A DNA stretch of 6,030 nt from a virus: positions 1 through 6,030 of IMG/VR virus record IMGVR_UViG_3300006195_000036; one strand, given 5' to 3'. Shown one piece after another: positions 508 to 6,030 of this stretch. A model generated the notes under the pieces. It was given only the letters and a program-made list of their open reading frames with translations, did not search any database and had not been told where the DNA came from. Each line of letters begins with the position of its first letter. The stretch's first letter is position 1. The position numbers and the translations under genes are program-made.

Positions 508-782
508 GACGTGCGCAACGCCAGGTGCTTCATCGTCATCCAGGCCAGCCCCGACACAATGCCGCCACTCGTGATCGCCATGTAGTCGAAAAAGCCCGCC
601 ATCGCGAACAGGTTCGCGATCGTCGGCCCCAGGCCGGTGAATGCATTCTTCGCTGCGTCAAGCGCGGCCCCGATCGCCGAGTCAGCGCCGGTGTACGTCA
701 CGTAGCCGAAGCCGAGCGATGTCAGCACGCGCGAGACCAGCGGCCATGAGATGTTCGACAGCCACGCGCCTAAGGTGTCCAT
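504..782 (-). CDS. pVI-like small hydrophobic minor coat/assembly protein (92 aa)
   Basis: ATG at 782-780 (MDTLGAWLSNISWPLV...) has GGAAGGG 6 nt upstream. The protein is hydrophobic and Gly/Ala-rich and sits between the adsorption protein and Zot, as gVI does in Ff. The stop overlaps the Zot start (ATGA). The track ORF 504..833 was trimmed to this start. Confidence 0.7.
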   Translation of the reverse strand: MDTLGAWLSNISWPLVSRVLTSLGFGYVTYTGADSAIGAALDAAKNAFTGLGPTIANLFAMAGFFDYMAITSGGIVSGLAWMTMKHLALRTS

Positions 783-2050
783 CAGTTGCCCTTCCGTGAG
801 AGGCCCAAAAAGCCGATTGCTGCACTGACCCAAGCGAGCGCGAGCACCACGGGCCGAATACCCGTGGCCATGTCGCAGAACGGCTGCCAGCTAAAGCTGT
901 AGGTGTGCCCCAGAAGGTTCGCCGTCTGCGGCGCCGGGCAAGTGCCGTTGCTCGGCCCATACCCGCTGCTCGGCGTGATCGCGAGGGGGACCACCGTCGC
1001 CTGCAACGGCTGCGTCTCGACGGTGCCCGGTTTCATGCAGCCGACCGTGTCGGGGTCTTGCTCACACGGACTGCCTTCACCGCCACCCGAGCCCGAGCCC
1101 GTGCCACCCGAGCCGCCGCTACCGCACAGCTTGCTGCCCGGGTTCTTCGAACAAAACTCCGACTGCGTCTGCGATGTCGACCCCGTCGTGGTCGCCGTCC
1201 CGCTACTCGTGCCGCCCGTCGTCGTCGTGGTCGTTGTCGTCGTTGTCGTGCAGATGCCCTCGTTGCACGTCGTCGTCCCGCTCGTCGTCGACCCCGAGGA
1301 CGATGCCGGCCCCGAGCCCGTCGTCGTGCCGCTCGCCGCCCCAGACGGTGCCGGCGCGCTCGCAGGCCCAGAGCACGGCACCACCACCGACAGACCGTTA
1401 ACCTGACCGGGACACTGCCCCGGCGGCAGCGGCTCTGGCGGACTGCTCACCGGAGCCGGATCAGCGCCCCCACTCCCTGCGCCCGTACACGACCCACCAG
1501 CCGACGTCATCGGGCCCCACACGAACGACCCGTTCGAGTCCTTGACCGCCAACGTCCCGTCGTAGACGCAAAGTCCGATGCAGACCCTGTAGTCGCTCGC
1601 GCCGTTCAAGACCTTGTAATACGCGCTCGCGCTACCCGGCATCACTACGCCCTTGGCGGGACAAGCAGGCGGCGTGCAAACGCCGCCAACATCCGTCTTG
1701 GGCGCCGGGCAGGTCGTCACCGTCTTGTAGCAACCGTACGTTGCGTGCTGGAGCCATCCCGGCGCCCCCGAGCAGTCCTCACTGACGCTGTTGACATACG
1801 ACGGCGCCGCCGTCCCGGTGTGCCCCATGCACTGAGCGCTCCGCGTCGGCATTACCCCCGCCATGTTCTGGTAGTAGTCGTAGACCCGCCCTGTCGCCGT
1901 CTCCACCAATCCGCGACACGCCTGATCGACCGTGTCGTAACGCGCCGCCGTCGCGAAGTTCCACCACGTCGAATGCGTATCGACCAACGCCCACGCCGAC
2001 GACGCCCAGAGCATTGCCAAGACCGCCACCGCCCTGCGCAGCAGCTGCAT
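782..2050 (-). CDS. pIII-like minor coat/adsorption protein (422 aa)
   Basis: ATG at 2050-2048 is preceded by GAAGGAG plus 5 nt. The signal peptide is MQLLRRAVAVLAMLWASSAWA|LVD. Cys-rich N-terminal domains are separated by Gly/Ser/Thr/Pro-rich linkers, including an 11-Thr run and GSGGSGGTGSGSGGGEGS. The C-terminal membrane anchor is RPVVLALAWVSAAIGFLGLSRKGN. The upstream part of track ORF 782..2107 begins at a TTG and was trimmed. Confidence 0.8.
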   Translation of the reverse strand: MQLLRRAVAVLAMLWASSAWALVDTHSTWWNFATAARYDTVDQACRGLVETATGRVYDYYQNMAGVMPTRSAQCMGHTGTAAPSYVNSVSEDCSGAPGWLQHATYGCYKTVTTCPAPKTDVGGVCTPPACPAKGVVMPGSASAYYKVLNGASDYRVCIGLCVYDGTLAVKDSNGSFVWGPMTSAGGSCTGAGSGGADPAPVSSPPEPLPPGQCPGQVNGLSVVVPCSGPASAPAPSGAASGTTTGSGPASSSGSTTSGTTTCNEGICTTTTTTTTTTTGGTSSGTATTTGSTSQTQSEFCSKNPGSKLCGSGGSGGTGSGSGGGEGSPCEQDPDTVGCMKPGTVETQPLQATVVPLAITPSSGYGPSNGTCPAPQTANLLGHTYSFSWQPFCDMATGIRPVVLALAWVSAAIGFLGLSRKGN

Positions 2051-2124
2051 CACCACTCCTTCACGATGACCCACACGCACAGCGCGAAGGCGAGAAGGAC
2101 GGCCCAAAACTCAGGCGTTGCCAT
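2050..2124 (-). CDS. Putative 24-aa hydrophobic peptide, candidate pVII/pIX-like virion tip or assembly protein
   Basis: Manual translation from ATG 2124-2122 gives MATPEFWAVLLAFALCVWVIVKEW*. The TGA stop (2052-2050) shares its A with the pIII ATG (TGATG). The start overlaps the last codons of the 109-aa ORF, and GAGGGGG lies 10 nt upstream. It is below the ORF-track length cutoff, and the short length keeps confidence moderate. Confidence 0.45.
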   Translation of the reverse strand: MATPEFWAVLLAFALCVWVIVKEW

Positions 2125-2440
2125 GATCGCGAAGCCCCCTCGTTACGAACATCAGCGCGTACACCGCTAGCACGGCGGCGGCGATGCCCCACCCCATCAC
2201 CACCGCGTCTTCCGCGCCCATCAGCACACACGGTTGCGGAGTCGCCGCAAACGTCTGTGTTGAAGCCGTGCCCCCAAGCGGCGTGTAGCTGTAGGTGATC
2301 GTCGTCGCGGTCACTCCCGCGACATCGACAACGACCACGGAGCCGCCATGTTCCAAGTTAGCCCCGACGAGCGCAGACGCTGCCGCAGCGTTAGCAGCTT
2401 CGGCCGTGTCGTAGCACGCAGTGCCAACTTGGAATGCCAT
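2111..2440 (-). CDS. 109-aa protein with a C-terminal transmembrane segment paralogous to the major coat protein; putative minor coat protein
   Basis: ATG at 2440-2438 (MAFQVGTACYD...) has AAGGG 6 nt upstream and overlaps the pVIII stop (TGATG). The C-terminus AEDAVVMGWGIAAAVLAVYALMFVTRGLR aligns with pVIII ADALTVAGIVLAAIVAVYAFKFIRKGL. The long Arg-rich N-terminal extension of track ORF 2111..2764 overlaps pVIII out of frame and was rejected. Confidence 0.65.
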   Translation of the reverse strand: MAFQVGTACYDTAEAANAAAASALVGANLEHGGSVVVVDVAGVTATTITYSYTPLGGTASTQTFAATPQPCVLMGAEDAVVMGWGIAAAVLAVYALMFVTRGLRDHGNA

Positions 2441-2625
2441 CACAGACCCTTGCGGATGAACTTGAAGGCGTAGACCGCGACGATCGCGGCGAGGACGATG
2501 CCGGCGACGGTCAGAGCGTCGGCCTGCAGGTCGGTCAGGGCCGTCGACACGGCAGCGGGAACCGCGGCCATTGCGTAGCCGCCGAGCGAGGTGAGCGGCA
2601 CCAGGACCGCGAGCTTCTTGAACAT
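2440..2625 (-). CDS. Major coat protein, pVIII-type (61-aa precursor, about 41-aa mature)
   Basis: ATG at 2625-2623 is preceded by CAGGAG plus 6 nt. The signal peptide is MFKKLAVLVPLTSLGGYAMA and the mature protein is AVPAAVSTALTDLQADALTVAGIVLAAIVAVYAFKFIRKGL. This shows the classic acidic N-terminus, hydrophobic core and basic C-terminus layout. Confidence 0.85.
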   Translation of the reverse strand: MFKKLAVLVPLTSLGGYAMAAVPAAVSTALTDLQADALTVAGIVLAAIVAVYAFKFIRKGL

Positions 2626-3325: not shown

Positions 3326-3374
3326 CGCAACACCGGAGTACCCTTACGCCGTGTCAATCGCCACAGAACCCGCC

Positions 3375-3725
3375 ATGAACGCCTCAGTGACCCTCATCGA
3401 CCGCGCCACACAAGCCGAAAAGAGCAACTCACAGGCGCTCTCTACCGCCCTTGGAATGAGCGAAAGCGCGCTCGCCGTCTCCAAGCACCGAGGCCACATC
3501 AGCCCCGAAGTCGCCGCGAAACTCGCCGACCGCCTAGGGCTCGACCCCGCGCTATGGGCGGGCATCGCCGCGCTTGAAGCCATCAAGCAGCCCGACGCCA
3601 AGACAAAGACCCTCCTACAGCGCCTGCGAGAGAGGGCGCGCAACTCATGGCTTGCGATCACTGGACGACCCGGCGCCGCGCGGCCCTCTCAGCGTGCTCC
3701 CCGGGCCCGCCATCGCACCGCCTGA
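3375..3725 (+). CDS. Xre/cI-like helix-turn-helix transcriptional regulator (putative phage repressor/immunity protein), 116 aa
   Basis: This is the only convincing plus-strand gene. The HTH pattern is SQALSTALGMSESALAVSKHRGHISPEVAAKLADRLGLD. The start is uncertain: ATG 3375 has no SD, and GTG 3351 has GGAG 12 nt upstream. The Arg/Pro-rich C-terminal tail overlaps the recombinase 3' end. Confidence 0.7.
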   Translation: MNASVTLIDRATQAEKSNSQALSTALGMSESALAVSKHRGHISPEVAAKLADRLGLDPALWAGIAALEAIKQPDAKTKTLLQRLRERARNSWLAITGRPGAARPSQRAPRARHRTA

Positions 3726-5213: not shown

Positions 5214-5242
5214 TGAGGCTCCCGGTATGAGTCTTAGTCACC

Positions 5243-5285
5243 GCCCCGGCCACTGCGTCAACAGTGAGTGCCGGGGCTTTCTTTT
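5243..5285 (+). terminator. Intrinsic-terminator-like hairpin plus T-tract, oriented on the plus strand
   Basis: The stem is GCCCCGGC-CACTG / CAGTG-(AGT bulge)-GCCGGGGC with loop CGTCAA (5243-5277), followed by TTTCTTTT (5278-5285). It lies immediately upstream of rep in minus-strand sense. It could equally be an origin or promoter-associated structure. Confidence 0.45.
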
Positions 5286-5292
5286 GGGGACG

Positions 5293-5314
5293 CTTCAGGC
5301 TTGATGTTCTGAAG
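5293..5314. promoter_or_regulatory. Hairpin CTTCAG-N10-CTGAAG with CTTGAT in the loop; candidate Rep nick site/origin
   Basis: The inverted repeat spans 5293-5298 and 5309-5314. The loop GCTTGATGTT contains CTTGAT (5300-5305) on the plus strand, which resembles the phiX174/pC194-class nick core CTTG/AT. Confidence 0.3.
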
Positions 5315-5333
5315 TGTCCTAGGAATAAATTTA

Positions 5334-5383
5334 GGCCGCGCTGCGCGCGGCCCGGGCCGGAGCTAAAGCTCCTGACCCGGGCC
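5334..5383. promoter_or_regulatory. Tandem GC-rich hairpins downstream of Zot; candidate terminator, packaging signal or complementary-strand origin
   Basis: Hairpin A is GGCCGCGC-TGC-GCGCGGCC (5334-5352). Hairpin B is GGCCCGGGCCGGAGCT..AGCTCCTGACCCGGGCC (5349-5383). In minus-strand sense they are followed by TAAATTTATT. They lie in the only large non-coding region. Confidence 0.5.
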
Positions 5384-5438
5384 GCCCAAGCAAGATAAAG
5401 CCGCTCTCGCGAGCACCACAGAGCACGCGCACACGCTC

Positions 5439-5483: not shown

Positions 5484-6030
5484 TTAAGCCCGAGGCGCTG
5501 ACGCGGCACCAGCTGGCGCAGGCGCAACGTAATACGGGTCGAACGGCGGGTTCTTCAACCACTCGTAGCACGCCCTGGCGTCGATCGGCGCACGCATGCC
5601 GTTTTGGATGAAGCAGTAGCACTTGCCGGCTTGGCAATAGCCACCCTGGACGCGAGGCATGTTCACGACCTTGCGCAACGTATCGTAGGCCGGCGCTGTC
5701 TCCGGCTGCGCGGCAATGCGCGGCGTGAAGCTCGCGCGGATGCTATGGGCTGTGATGGGCTCGCTCGCCTTCAGCGACGGCCCTGCGAGCGGCCCAGGGA
5801 CCACGCTGACCGGTTCCGCAGGCGTTGGGTGCATACGCTCATTGATTCGCCGCATGGCGTACCACGAGCCCAACGCAACGAAGAGCACGAGCGCCGCCAC
5901 GAGGGCCACAAGCCACGGGAACGAACGCACCGGCTTCACGTGAACCGATGCCGACTTGTAGAGCGAGAACGCCGCCTTCGGCAACTTGTAGCGCTTTTTG
6001 ATCGGCGCGGTTTTCCAGGCGTTGCCCATC
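5484..6030 (-). CDS. Zot/pI-like assembly protein, C-terminal part (TM segment plus periplasmic domain); 5931-6030 duplicates 1-100
   Basis: Track ORF 5484..6029 begins at an internal Met of the protein that starts at 507. The TM helix is FPWLVALVAALVLFVALGSWYAM, followed by a Pro/Ala-rich segment and a Cys-containing C-terminal domain. The TAA stop is at 5486-5484. Confidence 0.9.
   Translation of the reverse strand, partial: MGNAWKTAPIKKRYKLPKAAFSLYKSASVHVKPVRSFPWLVALVAALVLFVALGSWYAMRRINERMHPTPAEPVSVVPGPLAGPSLKASEPITAHSIRASFTPRIAAQPETAPAYDTLRKVVNMPRVQGGYCQAGKCYCFIQNGMRAPIDARACYEWLKNPPFDPYYVAPAPAGAASAPRA
5931..6030. repeat. Terminal direct duplication, copy 2 (identical to 1-100)
   Basis: All 100 nt match exactly. 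Confidence 0.95.

Follow-up and report, generated by a model that had tools for sequence, protein, structure and literature searches.

The locus studied here raises the question of what a small membrane protein does when its gene lies between the major coat protein gene and the pIII-like gene of a filamentous phage. The answer bears on how assembly starts in filamentous phages other than Ff. The window, which is the whole stretch of 6,030 nucleotides of viral DNA that we analysed, contains a genome of 5.93 kb in which six genes were matched to families by Pfam or PHROG (Rep, recombinase, repressor, coat, pIII, and pVI, the last as DUF2523), and Zot was assigned by synteny. The coat gene (2440..2625, minus strand) encodes a 61-aa precursor of the Coat B type (PF05356 Phage_Coat_B, E 9.6e-14; phrog_7106, E 6.9e-21). 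The pIII-like adsorption protein (782..2050, minus strand) has a signal peptide, Thr- and Gly/Ser-rich linkers, and a TspB-type C-terminal domain, in which residues 321-412 match PF05616 Neisseria_TspB (E 1.5e-6); it also matches phrog_13221 and phrog_4352. Neither ORF reading nor Pfam/PHROG matches revealed a pIV or pXI gene in the window. Two further ORFs, of 94 and 82 aa, gave no Pfam or PHROG family match and showed no hydrophobic segment on reading.

Between coat and pIII lies the 109-aa gene (2111..2440, minus strand; 109 codons and a TGA stop, which is included in the coordinates). The first-pass annotation had treated it as a genuine gene, and this is borne out by 193 representative homologues and by dN/dS values of 0.11 against locus L009 and 0.17 against L001. 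The gene is under purifying selection, which is strong across the whole N-terminal domain. Its proposed translational coupling to the coat gene was also found at the junction AAGGGTCTGTGATG (2438..2451, minus strand), where an SD-like AAGGG (2451-2447) within the last codons of the coat gene is followed by the coat stop T2442-G2441-A2440 and the ATG at 2440-2438. The TGATG overlap is therefore real, since A2440 is common to the stop and the start codon. In 10 of 14 related loci the start of the homologue overlaps the stop of the upstream gene, and the syntenic locus L036 has the identical TGATG. We rejected a start at an upstream GTG (2764) in a long open frame, because the added stretch is the coat gene read in an alternate, Arg-rich frame, and almost every homologue begins M-x-[FY]-Q-V-G. 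A frameshift fusion with the coat ORF, as proposed for NgoPhi6 ORF4-ORF5, was likewise rejected: there is no slippery heptamer upstream of the window junction, the junction is unconserved (several loci have a spacer of 2-73 nt or a 40-aa gene in between), and such a fusion would leave a Lys/Arg-free domain in the cytoplasm.

A second overlap follows directly. A hydrophobic ORF of 24 aa, MATPEFWAVLLAFALCVWVIVKEW (2050..2124, minus strand), which the first-pass annotation had overlooked, starts at an ATG within the final codons of the 109-aa gene. Its stop overlaps the pIII ATG, giving another TGATG, and the codons AAG GAG TGG at its end contain the SD for pIII. It is present in 13 of 14 related loci, and its positional equivalents are RS611 ORF6 (phrog_16542), Neisseria Orf12, and a tiny ORF in L036.

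The 109-aa protein belongs to a large, syntenic, unannotated family of filamentous phages in which a small domain is set on a coat-like membrane helix. The 193 representative homologues (E <= 1e-3) are nearly all 100-120 aa long and are matched over almost their full length; none is named and none has a Pfam domain. A 678-aa match with 12 matched stretches was set aside as repetitive and probably a spurious translation (P0083). The family spans phages of Comamonadaceae, Ralstonia RSS1-type phages, and Neisseria Nf, and the gene order is fixed as coat, the protein of ~105 aa, an ORF of ~24 aa, pIII, DUF2523, and Zot. This order was seen in Comamonadaceae prophages and viral contigs, RS611, RSBg, MW202882, the saliva inovirus D_HF3_10, and a Neisseria prophage (L032). 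Throughout, the family gene stands between coat and pIII, also at L036, and an overlapping hydrophobic ORF of ~21-26 aa comes next. The shared architecture consists of an N-terminal G-x-x-C-[YFL], a second Cys just before the single C-terminal helix, and a basic end; RS611, MW202882, D_HF3_10, and Nf ORF5 have the same Cys and helix arrangement. Comparison of the family with four distant positional equivalents by hhalign gave 96.5% (E 7.6e-10, 100 columns). Among 115 family members, 85 matched phrog_12382, whose function is unknown (best E 1.5e-6), and the window protein alone reached E 0.031, with residues 5-103 on profile positions 8-111 of 111. Family membership had not been noticed in the first-pass annotation, and the protein is no peculiarity of one genome. 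Other searches gave nothing: a tblastn search of 50,697 phage records with the 109-aa protein as query had no match up to E 10, its Pfam scan gave only a sub-threshold SnoaL_4 that we judged to be noise, and a profile search against PDB sequences was likewise empty at E 10.

By sequence, the 109-aa protein is a distant relative of RSS1-type ORF5 and of Neisseria Nf/NgoPhi6 ORF5. The Ralstonia gene (RS611 ORF5, RSBg orf4; phrog_12382) follows the coat gene directly with a TGATG overlap, as in the window. RS611 ORF5 is of similar size (111 aa), with a Cys near the N-terminus and a second one before a C-terminal helix that has the D-G-x-x-x-G-W-G motif and basic end of the window family, and an overlapping 26-aa hydrophobic ORF and pIII come after it in the same order. 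The hhalign probability is 89% for RS611 ORF5 alone, and it reaches 96.5% together with the other distant members. It differs, however, in having five Lys/Arg in the N-domain and an anchor unlike its own coat (3/26 identities). In Neisseria Nf, MDA, and NgoPhi6, coat ORF4 is followed by ORF5 (92 aa), the overlapping 23-aa Orf12, and further on by a TspB-type pIII. The N-terminus MYCQVGNKC of ORF5 corresponds to MAFQVGTAC in the window protein, and a Cys precedes, by ~20 residues, a C-terminal helix with basic residues at its end. On its own, Neisseria ORF5 is matched very weakly (7.5 bits, hhalign 3%), and it is included in the 96.5% profile match; its N-domain is rich in Lys/Arg and an extra 110-aa ORF6 precedes pIII. 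The one ORF5-like protein reported in virions is NgoPhi6 ORF5-FLAG, which was seen on a western blot of purified phagemid particles of NgoPhi6 (PMC6107182). Orf5 has been modelled with a coat-like C-end (PMC7561177). The Neisseria papers assign the protein to the filament tube, going as far as to call it a second main structural protein, and not to the tip, and they read a 25-kDa band as an ORF4-ORF5 fusion (PMC6107182, PMC7561177).

The anchor helix of the window protein (residues 76-104; 2129..2215, minus strand) is predicted with a pLDDT of ~95 and contains Asp78, an invariant Gly83-Trp84, a hydrophobic core, Tyr94, and then Arg101 and Arg104. A Gly-Trp pair does occur in the Neisseria coat. 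The family C-tail is not net positive, with a mean of 1.47 Lys+Arg against 1.37 Asp+Glu. The first-pass annotation had aligned this end of the protein with the helix and basic tail of the coat, and BLASTP agreed: residues 78-103 match coat residues 36-61 with 11/26 identities and 18/26 positives (pairwise E 4e-5). The DNA is well diverged, as had been stated, with 44/78 nucleotides common to the two coding stretches. The register is that of Coat B proteins (PF05356; Pf1-type), i.e. an Asp, ~20 hydrophobic residues, an aromatic residue at ~+16, basic residues, and Gly-Leu. Unlike Coat B, the protein has no signal peptide, and where the mature coat has its outer 16 residues it carries a globular N-domain of 75 aa. 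The described layout of an extra domain on a coat-type anchor thus fits our results, with ~75 aa at the N-terminus and a specifically coat-like C-terminal helix.

Would two Ala/Val-rich membrane helices match equally well by chance or composition, so that the anchor is only a generic transmembrane helix? The comparable stretch is short, Pfam Coat_B stays below threshold in every member, and RS611 ORF5 matches its own coat no better than shuffled sequences (3/26, core-shuffle z 0.2), sharing only the layout. The controls nevertheless largely refute this explanation, which we regard as hardly probable at all. In the window, the fixed-register BLOSUM62 score of 58 gave z = 6.6 against full tail shuffles, and z = 3.3 (p = 0.002) against shuffles of the hydrophobic core only. 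Alignment of 115 homologues with 13 co-resident coats by hhalign gave a probability of 79% and a score of 33.3, above every control: 9.7 for the reversed alignment, 8.7 +/- 1.6 for whole-column shuffles, 20.9 +/- 2.7 (maximum 29.5) for shuffles of the TM core only, and at most 18.4 for other membrane helices of the same phages. Because none of the 200 core-only shuffles reached the observed score, the similarity exceeds what two Ala/Val-rich helices would give. Moreover, the family HMM on the anchor picked the window coat at 12.6 bits and the Neisseria coat at 13.6 bits, and gave at most 0.6 bits for the pIII anchor, pVI, and the fd, Pf1, and RS611 coats. The likeness is uneven over the family, with 3 to 12 identities of 26 across the 13 co-resident pairs. 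Six of 115 members matched the coat PHROG and two of 115 Coat_B (best E 0.011), all below threshold; the window protein had no PF05356 match, and no member passed the Pfam gathering score.

An old duplication of pVIII had been proposed on the basis of this likeness. The similarity stands, and common ancestry of the anchor and the coat gene is probable; duplicate origin itself is not established by ~26 comparable residues with an hhalign probability of 79% and no such likeness in RS611. Since the likeness of the anchor to its own coat disappears in RS611, it may also be convergent, a product of both helices packing into one lattice. The lineage does contain duplicated coat genes: a clear leaderless coat paralogue of 40 aa is found at the same place in five loci of related phages (95.8%).

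The N-terminal domain (residues 1-75; 2216..2440, minus strand) is predicted to be a small alpha/beta fold. The AlphaFold2 model (mean pLDDT 79.8) has strands at residues 3-5, 8-10, 28-31, 34-43, 47-54, and 60-65 and a helix at 13-22, and a Foldseek search with it gave no match at E <= 0.001 (best E 0.7 in PDB and 0.08 in BFVD). The weak Foldseek matches included a Thermus competence pilin and Vibrio fs1 proteins. Cys9 is present in 114/115 family members and Cys71 in 115/115, and 114/115 have exactly two Cys. The first 77 residues of the window protein contain no Lys/Arg, and the family mean is 0.75 Lys+Arg per 78 residues, compared with 3.5% in the pIII ectodomain and 13-18% in cytoplasmic proteins; the value for the window protein does not decide the matter by itself (P = 0.066), since the pIII ectodomain is itself low in Lys/Arg. 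The depletion fades in distant relatives, to 14% in the N-domain of Neisseria ORF5 on reading of the sequence.

We agree with the first-pass annotation that there is no signal peptide: no Lys/Arg occurs before residue 101, and neither a basic n-region nor a hydrophobic segment before residue 76 is present. The Kyte-Doolittle 19-residue mean is at most 1.15 in sampled windows starting before residue 71 and 2.18 over residues 80-98, so the protein is leaderless with a single predicted C-terminal hydrophobic helix. How the N-domain would cross the membrane had been left as a puzzle, and our answers to it are indirect. A syntenic homologue (P0112, at L036) with the same TGATG start has a classical signal peptide preceding the conserved domain. 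Considering this signal peptide together with the near absence of Lys/Arg and the two near-invariant Cys, the N-domain is probably periplasmic.

A role in the virion was one of several that had been suggested for this protein, and it is the best reading, since the distant Neisseria homologue ORF5 was found in purified particles (PMC6107182, PMC7561177). The 109-aa protein is most likely a minor virion protein, at the tip, rather than a second major coat. On the grounds of geometry and elimination, our preferred reading, to which we give a little less than an even chance, is that the 109-aa and 24-aa proteins together cap the leading end of the filament and do the job of pVII and pIX.

Re-initiation after the coat gene would produce small amounts of the 109-aa protein, which would insert in the inner membrane in the orientation of the coat, with the acidic, Lys/Arg-free, putatively disulfide-bonded N-domain of ~75 aa in the periplasm and the short Arg-containing C-tail in the cytoplasm. 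As the protein has no signal peptide, we propose that the N-domain is exported by N-tail translocation, which is known for the Pf3 coat, pVII/pIX, and ProW. The coat-like helix would then pack among pVIII helices, and a few copies, together with the 24-aa protein, would form the leading, assembly-initiating cap, with the N-domain as a knob on this tip. We place the cap there since an N-terminal globule fits best at the end to which the pVIII N-termini point.

Functional equivalence with pVII and pIX of Ff is an inference by analogy. The genes of these two proteins are translationally coupled in the structural operon, and both proteins resemble the 109-aa protein in having no signal peptide and a single hydrophobic helix. 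In the Ff virion, their N-terminus points out and their charged C-terminus faces the DNA, the helices of pIX alternate with those of pVIII, and display at that tip works only with fusions to the N-terminus (PMC10175506); we expect the same orientation for the 109-aa protein. On the other hand, pVII and pIX are 33 and 32 aa long, lack an additional domain, and have their genes upstream of gVIII, so the 24-aa ORF is the closer match in size. Neither the window protein nor the 115 family members matched any pVII or pIX family in Pfam or PHROG, and the window genome encodes no pVII/pIX otherwise. Homologues of gIX, and often gVII, are reportedly missing from integrative inoviruses (bioRxiv 10.1101/2024.03.19.585677). 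Considering that the other presumed genes of the window fit other roles or have no hydrophobic segment, only the 109-aa protein and the 24-aa ORF remain as candidates for the cap. Extension of this cap to pVII/pIX-less integrative inoviruses in general, including Ralstonia RSS1 and Neisseria MDA/Ngo, is more tentative; it takes in a folded disulfide-bonded knob, N-tail export without a signal peptide, and an anchor derived from a duplicated coat gene. We rejected identity with PSB15, which binds the packaging signal in Xanthomonas phages. The PSB15 gene occupies a different place in the genome, its product is a peripheral and not an integral membrane protein, and the 109-aa protein lacks the WAGFXF motif of PSB15.

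Other places in the virion have to be weighed against the leading end. We consider it rather unlikely that the protein co-assembles at low frequency among pVIII along the shaft, with its N-domain all over the surface, as a natural counterpart of hybrid 'type 88' display. Such decoration would agree with the coat register of the anchor and with the published view of Neisseria ORF5, which places it in the filament tube together with ORF4 (PMC6107182, PMC7561177). However, the mature coat helix has 42 aa, of which the anchor covers no more than the 26 inner residues, and judging from the f1 structure we would expect a globule of 75 aa to clash with the overlapping N-terminal layer of its neighbours (PMC10175506). 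In addition, the C-tail has no net positive charge for DNA neutralisation, which we count for the tip over the shaft, and the invariant Gly-Trp and Trp90, missing in the co-resident coat, suggest a specialised contact. The opposite end of the filament seems quite improbable for an auxiliary adsorption or entry protein that acts with pIII. Two overlapping junctions do tie the 109-aa gene to pIII via the 24-aa ORF, and the pIII-type ORF6/Orf7 of Neisseria is dispensable for pilus binding or infection, so that another protein may contribute (PMC12819557, PMC7561177). However, it is the C-termini of pVIII and not the N-termini that face the pIII tip (PMC10175506), where a coat-oriented helix would bury its N-terminal domain, and pVI (DUF2523) is already there as the partner of pIII.

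The remaining alternatives keep the protein in the cell. A membrane-resident morphogenesis factor at the assembly site, absent from virions, such as a pVIII chaperone or a link between pI/Zot and a host secretin, is clearly unlikely in our estimate. A single-pass membrane protein of the structural and assembly operon, in a phage without a pIV or pXI gene, would suit this role, and its coat-like helix could bind pVIII in the membrane; against this, the tagged Neisseria homologue co-purifies with particles (PMC6107182), and all other genes of the block encode virion proteins. The first-pass annotation had also named superinfection exclusion, and this or another accessory membrane function benefiting the lysogen would suit a temperate inovirus protein that is small and membrane-bound; among the small membrane proteins of inoviruses, PfsE of Pf phages is an example of such a role. 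We nevertheless judge this option highly improbable, because the gene is a deeply conserved core gene of the structural module that keeps its position and architecture from Neisseria to Ralstonia to Comamonadaceae phages, with strong purifying selection over the whole N-domain.

The finding would be an ordinary one if the protein does no more than decorate the shaft in low copy or act as a membrane factor. If the leading-end cap is real, these phages would have another, so far unexplored surface for interactions at the tip opposite pIII, together with a natural scaffold for display there, and the leaderless export of a ~75-residue domain would be a tidy model for N-tail translocation. Three sets of hypothetical or loosely described proteins (Comamonadaceae, Ralstonia RSS1 ORF5, and Neisseria Nf ORF5) are joined into one syntenic family with a shared architecture. 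Pairing this family with a conserved tiny ORF gives two candidates for the missing cap, which can be tested in the culturable phages RSS1 of Ralstonia and MDA/NgoPhi6 of Neisseria, with relevance to plant and human disease. Some members have other cap candidates, since in the close relatives L001 and L002 a further small hydrophobic ORF lies upstream of the coat, and the 40-aa coat paralogue occurs in the five loci mentioned above.

The 109-aa gene (2440-2111, minus strand) starts in a TGATG overlap with the Coat-B major coat gene (2625-2440, minus strand), and an SD-like AAGGG lies 6 nt 5' of its ATG within the last coat codons. On reading the sequence, we found the coordinates, length and overlap given in the first-pass annotation to be correct. 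The tail also resembles the coat as claimed there: residues 78-103 align with coat residues 36-61 with 11 of 26 positions identical and 18 of 26 positive (pairwise BLASTP, E 4e-5). The two coding stretches have 44 of 78 nt in common, so the DNA is diverged, as had been observed, and this is not a recent repeat. Residues 80-98 are the sole strongly hydrophobic segment, and no Lys or Arg precedes residue 101, in agreement with the reported absence of a signal peptide. An AlphaFold2 model built from the homologue alignment (mean pLDDT 79.8) predicts that residues 1-70 form a small alpha/beta domain and residues 76-104 a helix (pLDDT ~95), which upholds the suggested domain-plus-anchor layout; the model showed no significant structural likeness to solved or predicted viral structures. 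The gene is under purifying selection, with dN/dS values of 0.11 and 0.17 against the related loci L009 and L001, respectively, and 0.11 for the N-domain alone.

In an exhaustive profile search, 193 cluster representatives passed E <= 1e-3, of which 115 also passed E <= 1e-10. Almost all homologues are 100-120 aa long and are matched across nearly their entire length; they contain no Pfam domain, and the few names given by any source are all 'hypothetical protein'. Among the 115 sequences, Gln4, Val5, Gly6, Cys9, Tyr10 and Cys71 are near-invariant, together with Leu73, Leu74, Asp78, Gly83, Trp84 and Trp90 in the C-terminal part. The gene order around the homologues is constant (coat, 109-aa homologue, pIII, DUF2523, Zot), and in 10 of 14 loci the start codon of the homologue shares bases with the stop codon of the preceding gene.

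The family to which the 109-aa gene belongs already exists but has no name, and the gene is one of its divergent members. Ralstonia phage RS611 has the same layout, with coat, TGATG, a 111-aa ORF5, a 26-aa ORF6 and pIII, as do the environmental inovirus MW202882 and the human-saliva inovirus D_HF3_10. RS611 ORF5 defines phrog_12382 (E 2.6e-69), which is matched by 85 of the 115 family members and, weakly (E 0.031) but across the full length, by the window protein. The Neisseria Nf prophage, found in IMG/VR with sequence derived from published primers, is arranged as ORF4 coat, 92-aa ORF5, 23-aa Orf12, ORF6 and TspB, and its ORF5 follows the pattern MYCQVGNKC…AEC…helix…LLKKVLK. When the proteins of these four distant sources were aligned and compared with the family profile, the match reached 96.5% (E 7.6e-10, 100 columns). 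Purified phagemid particles were found to contain NgoPhi6 ORF5 tagged with a C-terminal FLAG (PMC6107182), and the Orf5 C-end was modelled as weakly coat-like, the protein being termed an accessory structural protein (PMC7561177). The label 'putative minor coat protein', unsupported by evidence, was given to RSCq orf5, in a numbering unlike that of RS611 (PMC11323561). What is new here is that three phage protein sets are linked and their architecture is defined, and that a partner ORF and a cap hypothesis are added.

The coat resemblance of the anchor is specific, yet short and uneven. The fixed-register tail score was 6.6 SD over the mean of tail shuffles, and 3.3 SD over the mean (p 0.002) with a core-only shuffle in which the Asp and the basic end were held. 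Profile-profile comparison of the 115 homologues with 13 coats encoded beside homologues gave a probability of 79% and a score of 33.3, with Asp78 opposite coat Asp36. Scores were 9.5-9.7 for reversed alignments, 8.7 +/- 1.6 (maximum 14.8) when all coat columns were shuffled, 9.9 +/- 1.8 when coat residues 36-61 were shuffled, and 20.9 +/- 2.7 (maximum 29.5; 0 of 200 at 33.3) in the strictest control, in which the 18 TM-core columns were shuffled. Against the family, real helices of the same phages scored 17.2 (pIII anchor), 12.4 (pVI) and 8.5 (24-aa ORF). The similarity thus goes beyond that of two Ala/Val-rich TM helices, since all of these controls lie below 33.3. The family HMM was also selective, with 12.6 bits for the window coat and 13.6 bits for the Neisseria Nf coat, which has a D-G-x-x-x-G-W motif in common with the family, and <= 0.6 bits for the fd, Pf1 and RS611 coats and the pIII and pVI helices. 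Matches to the coat PHROG (6 of 115 members, best E 0.001) and to Pfam Coat_B (2 of 115, best E 0.011) were all below threshold. Identities in the 13 co-resident pairs ranged from 12 of 26 down to 3 of 26 in RS611, whose ORF5 matched its own coat no better than shuffled sequence.

The likeness of anchor and coat could have arisen by convergence or by shared descent. Five related phages carry a leaderless 40-54-aa ORF between coat and homologue (L005 5876-6016, L007 2072-2194, L008 5879-6016, L012 1172-1294 and L017 ~2261-2380), which the window does not have. This ORF, without a signal peptide, is clearly paralogous to the coat (hhalign 95.8%, score 43.9). Coat duplication does therefore occur at this spot, one point that speaks for shared descent over convergence.

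In terms of topology, the window N-domain has no Lys or Arg in 77 residues, and family N-domains have a mean of 0.75 per 78 residues, with none in 51 of 115 sequences. In the same genome, Lys/Arg content is 3.5% in the exported pIII ectodomain versus 13-18% in cytoplasmic proteins. Exactly two Cys occur in 114 of the 115 family sequences, and Arg residues come after the anchor helix of the 109-aa protein. The syntenic homologue P0112 (L036 515-1027), with the same TGATG start, has a classical signal peptide (MAAPRWLMACVPWVFGALLLLMAVAPFSAFA, followed by QG) and a ~30-aa Cys-rich insert before the conserved domain begins; no other such case occurs among the 150 best representatives. Taken together, the Lys/Arg depletion, the Cys pair, the trailing Arg and the P0112 signal peptide point to an N-out, C-in protein like the coat, whose N-domain would be periplasmic and probably disulfide-bonded. 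The Lys/Arg-rich N-domain of the Neisseria protein is a caveat to this reading. There are precedents for leaderless export, namely pVII/pIX, the Pf3 coat and ProW, whose N-tail is 100 residues long.

A 24-aa hydrophobic ORF (MATPEFWAVLLAFALCVWVIVKEW; 2124-2050, minus strand) begins within the 3' end of the 109-aa gene, its ATG falling among the final codons (…CAT GGC AAC GCC TGA). This overlap accounts for the Gly-Asn-Ala/Thr conserved at the C-terminus of the family. A second TGATG joins the stop of the 24-aa ORF to the start of pIII, and the SD for pIII is supplied by the final codons of this ORF, AAG GAG TGG. Considering the overlapping junctions and embedded SDs, the coat, the 109-aa gene, the 24-aa ORF and pIII form one coupled chain, each gene bearing the SD for the next. 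The 24-aa ORF is present in 13 of 14 related loci, with RS611 ORF6 (phrog_16542) and Neisseria Orf12 as positional matches. Its length makes it easily overlooked by gene callers, and the first-pass annotation missed it. Directly upstream of the coat, the closest prophage relatives, L002 (1999-2130) and also L001, carry a 43-aa ORF that includes a single hydrophobic segment (…AMLVWGGIVALVGFGFGYLV…) and has no equivalent in the window, possibly another small virion or exclusion protein of that lineage.

Bases 1-100 of the window recur exactly at 5931-6030, and this 100-bp terminal redundancy shows that the inovirus genome, 5,930 bp long, is circular and complete. From ORF reading and family matches, the structural genes were assigned to the minus strand. 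Of the other ORFs taken as genes, seven fit a known role: the coat, a pIII-like protein with a TspB-type C-terminus (2050-782, minus), DUF2523 pVI (833-504, minus), Zot/pI (minus, from near 507 across the circle junction to 5484, by ORF reading and synteny with L001), rolling-circle Rep (5213-4341, minus), a resolvase-type serine recombinase (4263-3658, minus; PF00239, E 3.4e-35) and an adjoining, divergent CI-like HTH repressor (3351-3725, plus). A 94-aa ORF (3232-2948, minus) and a basic, soluble 82-aa ORF upstream of the coat (2946-2698, minus) had no family match and, on reading, no hydrophobic segment. With these genes accounted for, the 109-aa protein and the 24-aa ORF are the only leaderless hydrophobic-helix proteins left.

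In f1, pVII and pIX have no signal peptide, and their N-termini are exposed at the round (leading) tip with the C-termini DNA-ward; around a core of pVII, pIX and pVIII take alternating places, and the pVIII N-termini aim at that tip (PMC10175506). Integrative inoviruses reportedly have no gIX and often no gVII (bioRxiv 10.1101/2024.03.19.585677). A coat-type helix with an N-terminal 75-aa domain would sterically suit the end where N-termini point. From the elimination, this steric fit and the charge of the C-tail, we tentatively propose, at slightly under an even chance, that the 109-aa and 24-aa proteins together form the leading cap, where filament assembly initiates, and that the N-domain would be a knob exposed there. 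A low-copy decoration of the shaft would agree with the wording of the Neisseria authors; however, the C-tail has no net positive charge, which would make the protein a poor shaft subunit. Its other possible roles are a membrane-resident assembly factor, a component of the pIII end, or superinfection exclusion. The weaker claim, that the 109-aa protein is a virion component with N-out topology, we consider fairly probable.

Relatives occur as prophages in Alicycliphilus, Variovorax and other Burkholderiales, and L001 shows one integrated in a bacterial chromosome. At the DNA level, there were only weak matches, in the Zot region (Ralstonia RSS-type phages) and the coat gene (one Pf-type phage). 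The serine recombinase beside the divergent repressor suggests a temperate, integrating inovirus. Between Rep and the Zot end, non-coding positions 5240-5390 hold dense GC-rich inverted repeats, such as GGCCGCGC/GCGCGGCC at 5334-5352 and GCGGCCCGGG/CCCGGGCCGC at 5347-5385, a candidate replication origin or packaging-signal hairpin. In the 82-aa ORF, SGAGFLL may faintly recall WAGFXF, the DNA-binding motif of the Xanthomonas packaging-signal protein PSB15. Finally, pIII contains a run of ~10 Thr and Gly/Ser-rich stretches (…TTTTTTTTTTGGTSSG…, …GSGGSGGTGSGSGGGEGS…) at window positions 1150-1420 (minus strand), similar to the flexible interdomain linkers of Ff pIII.
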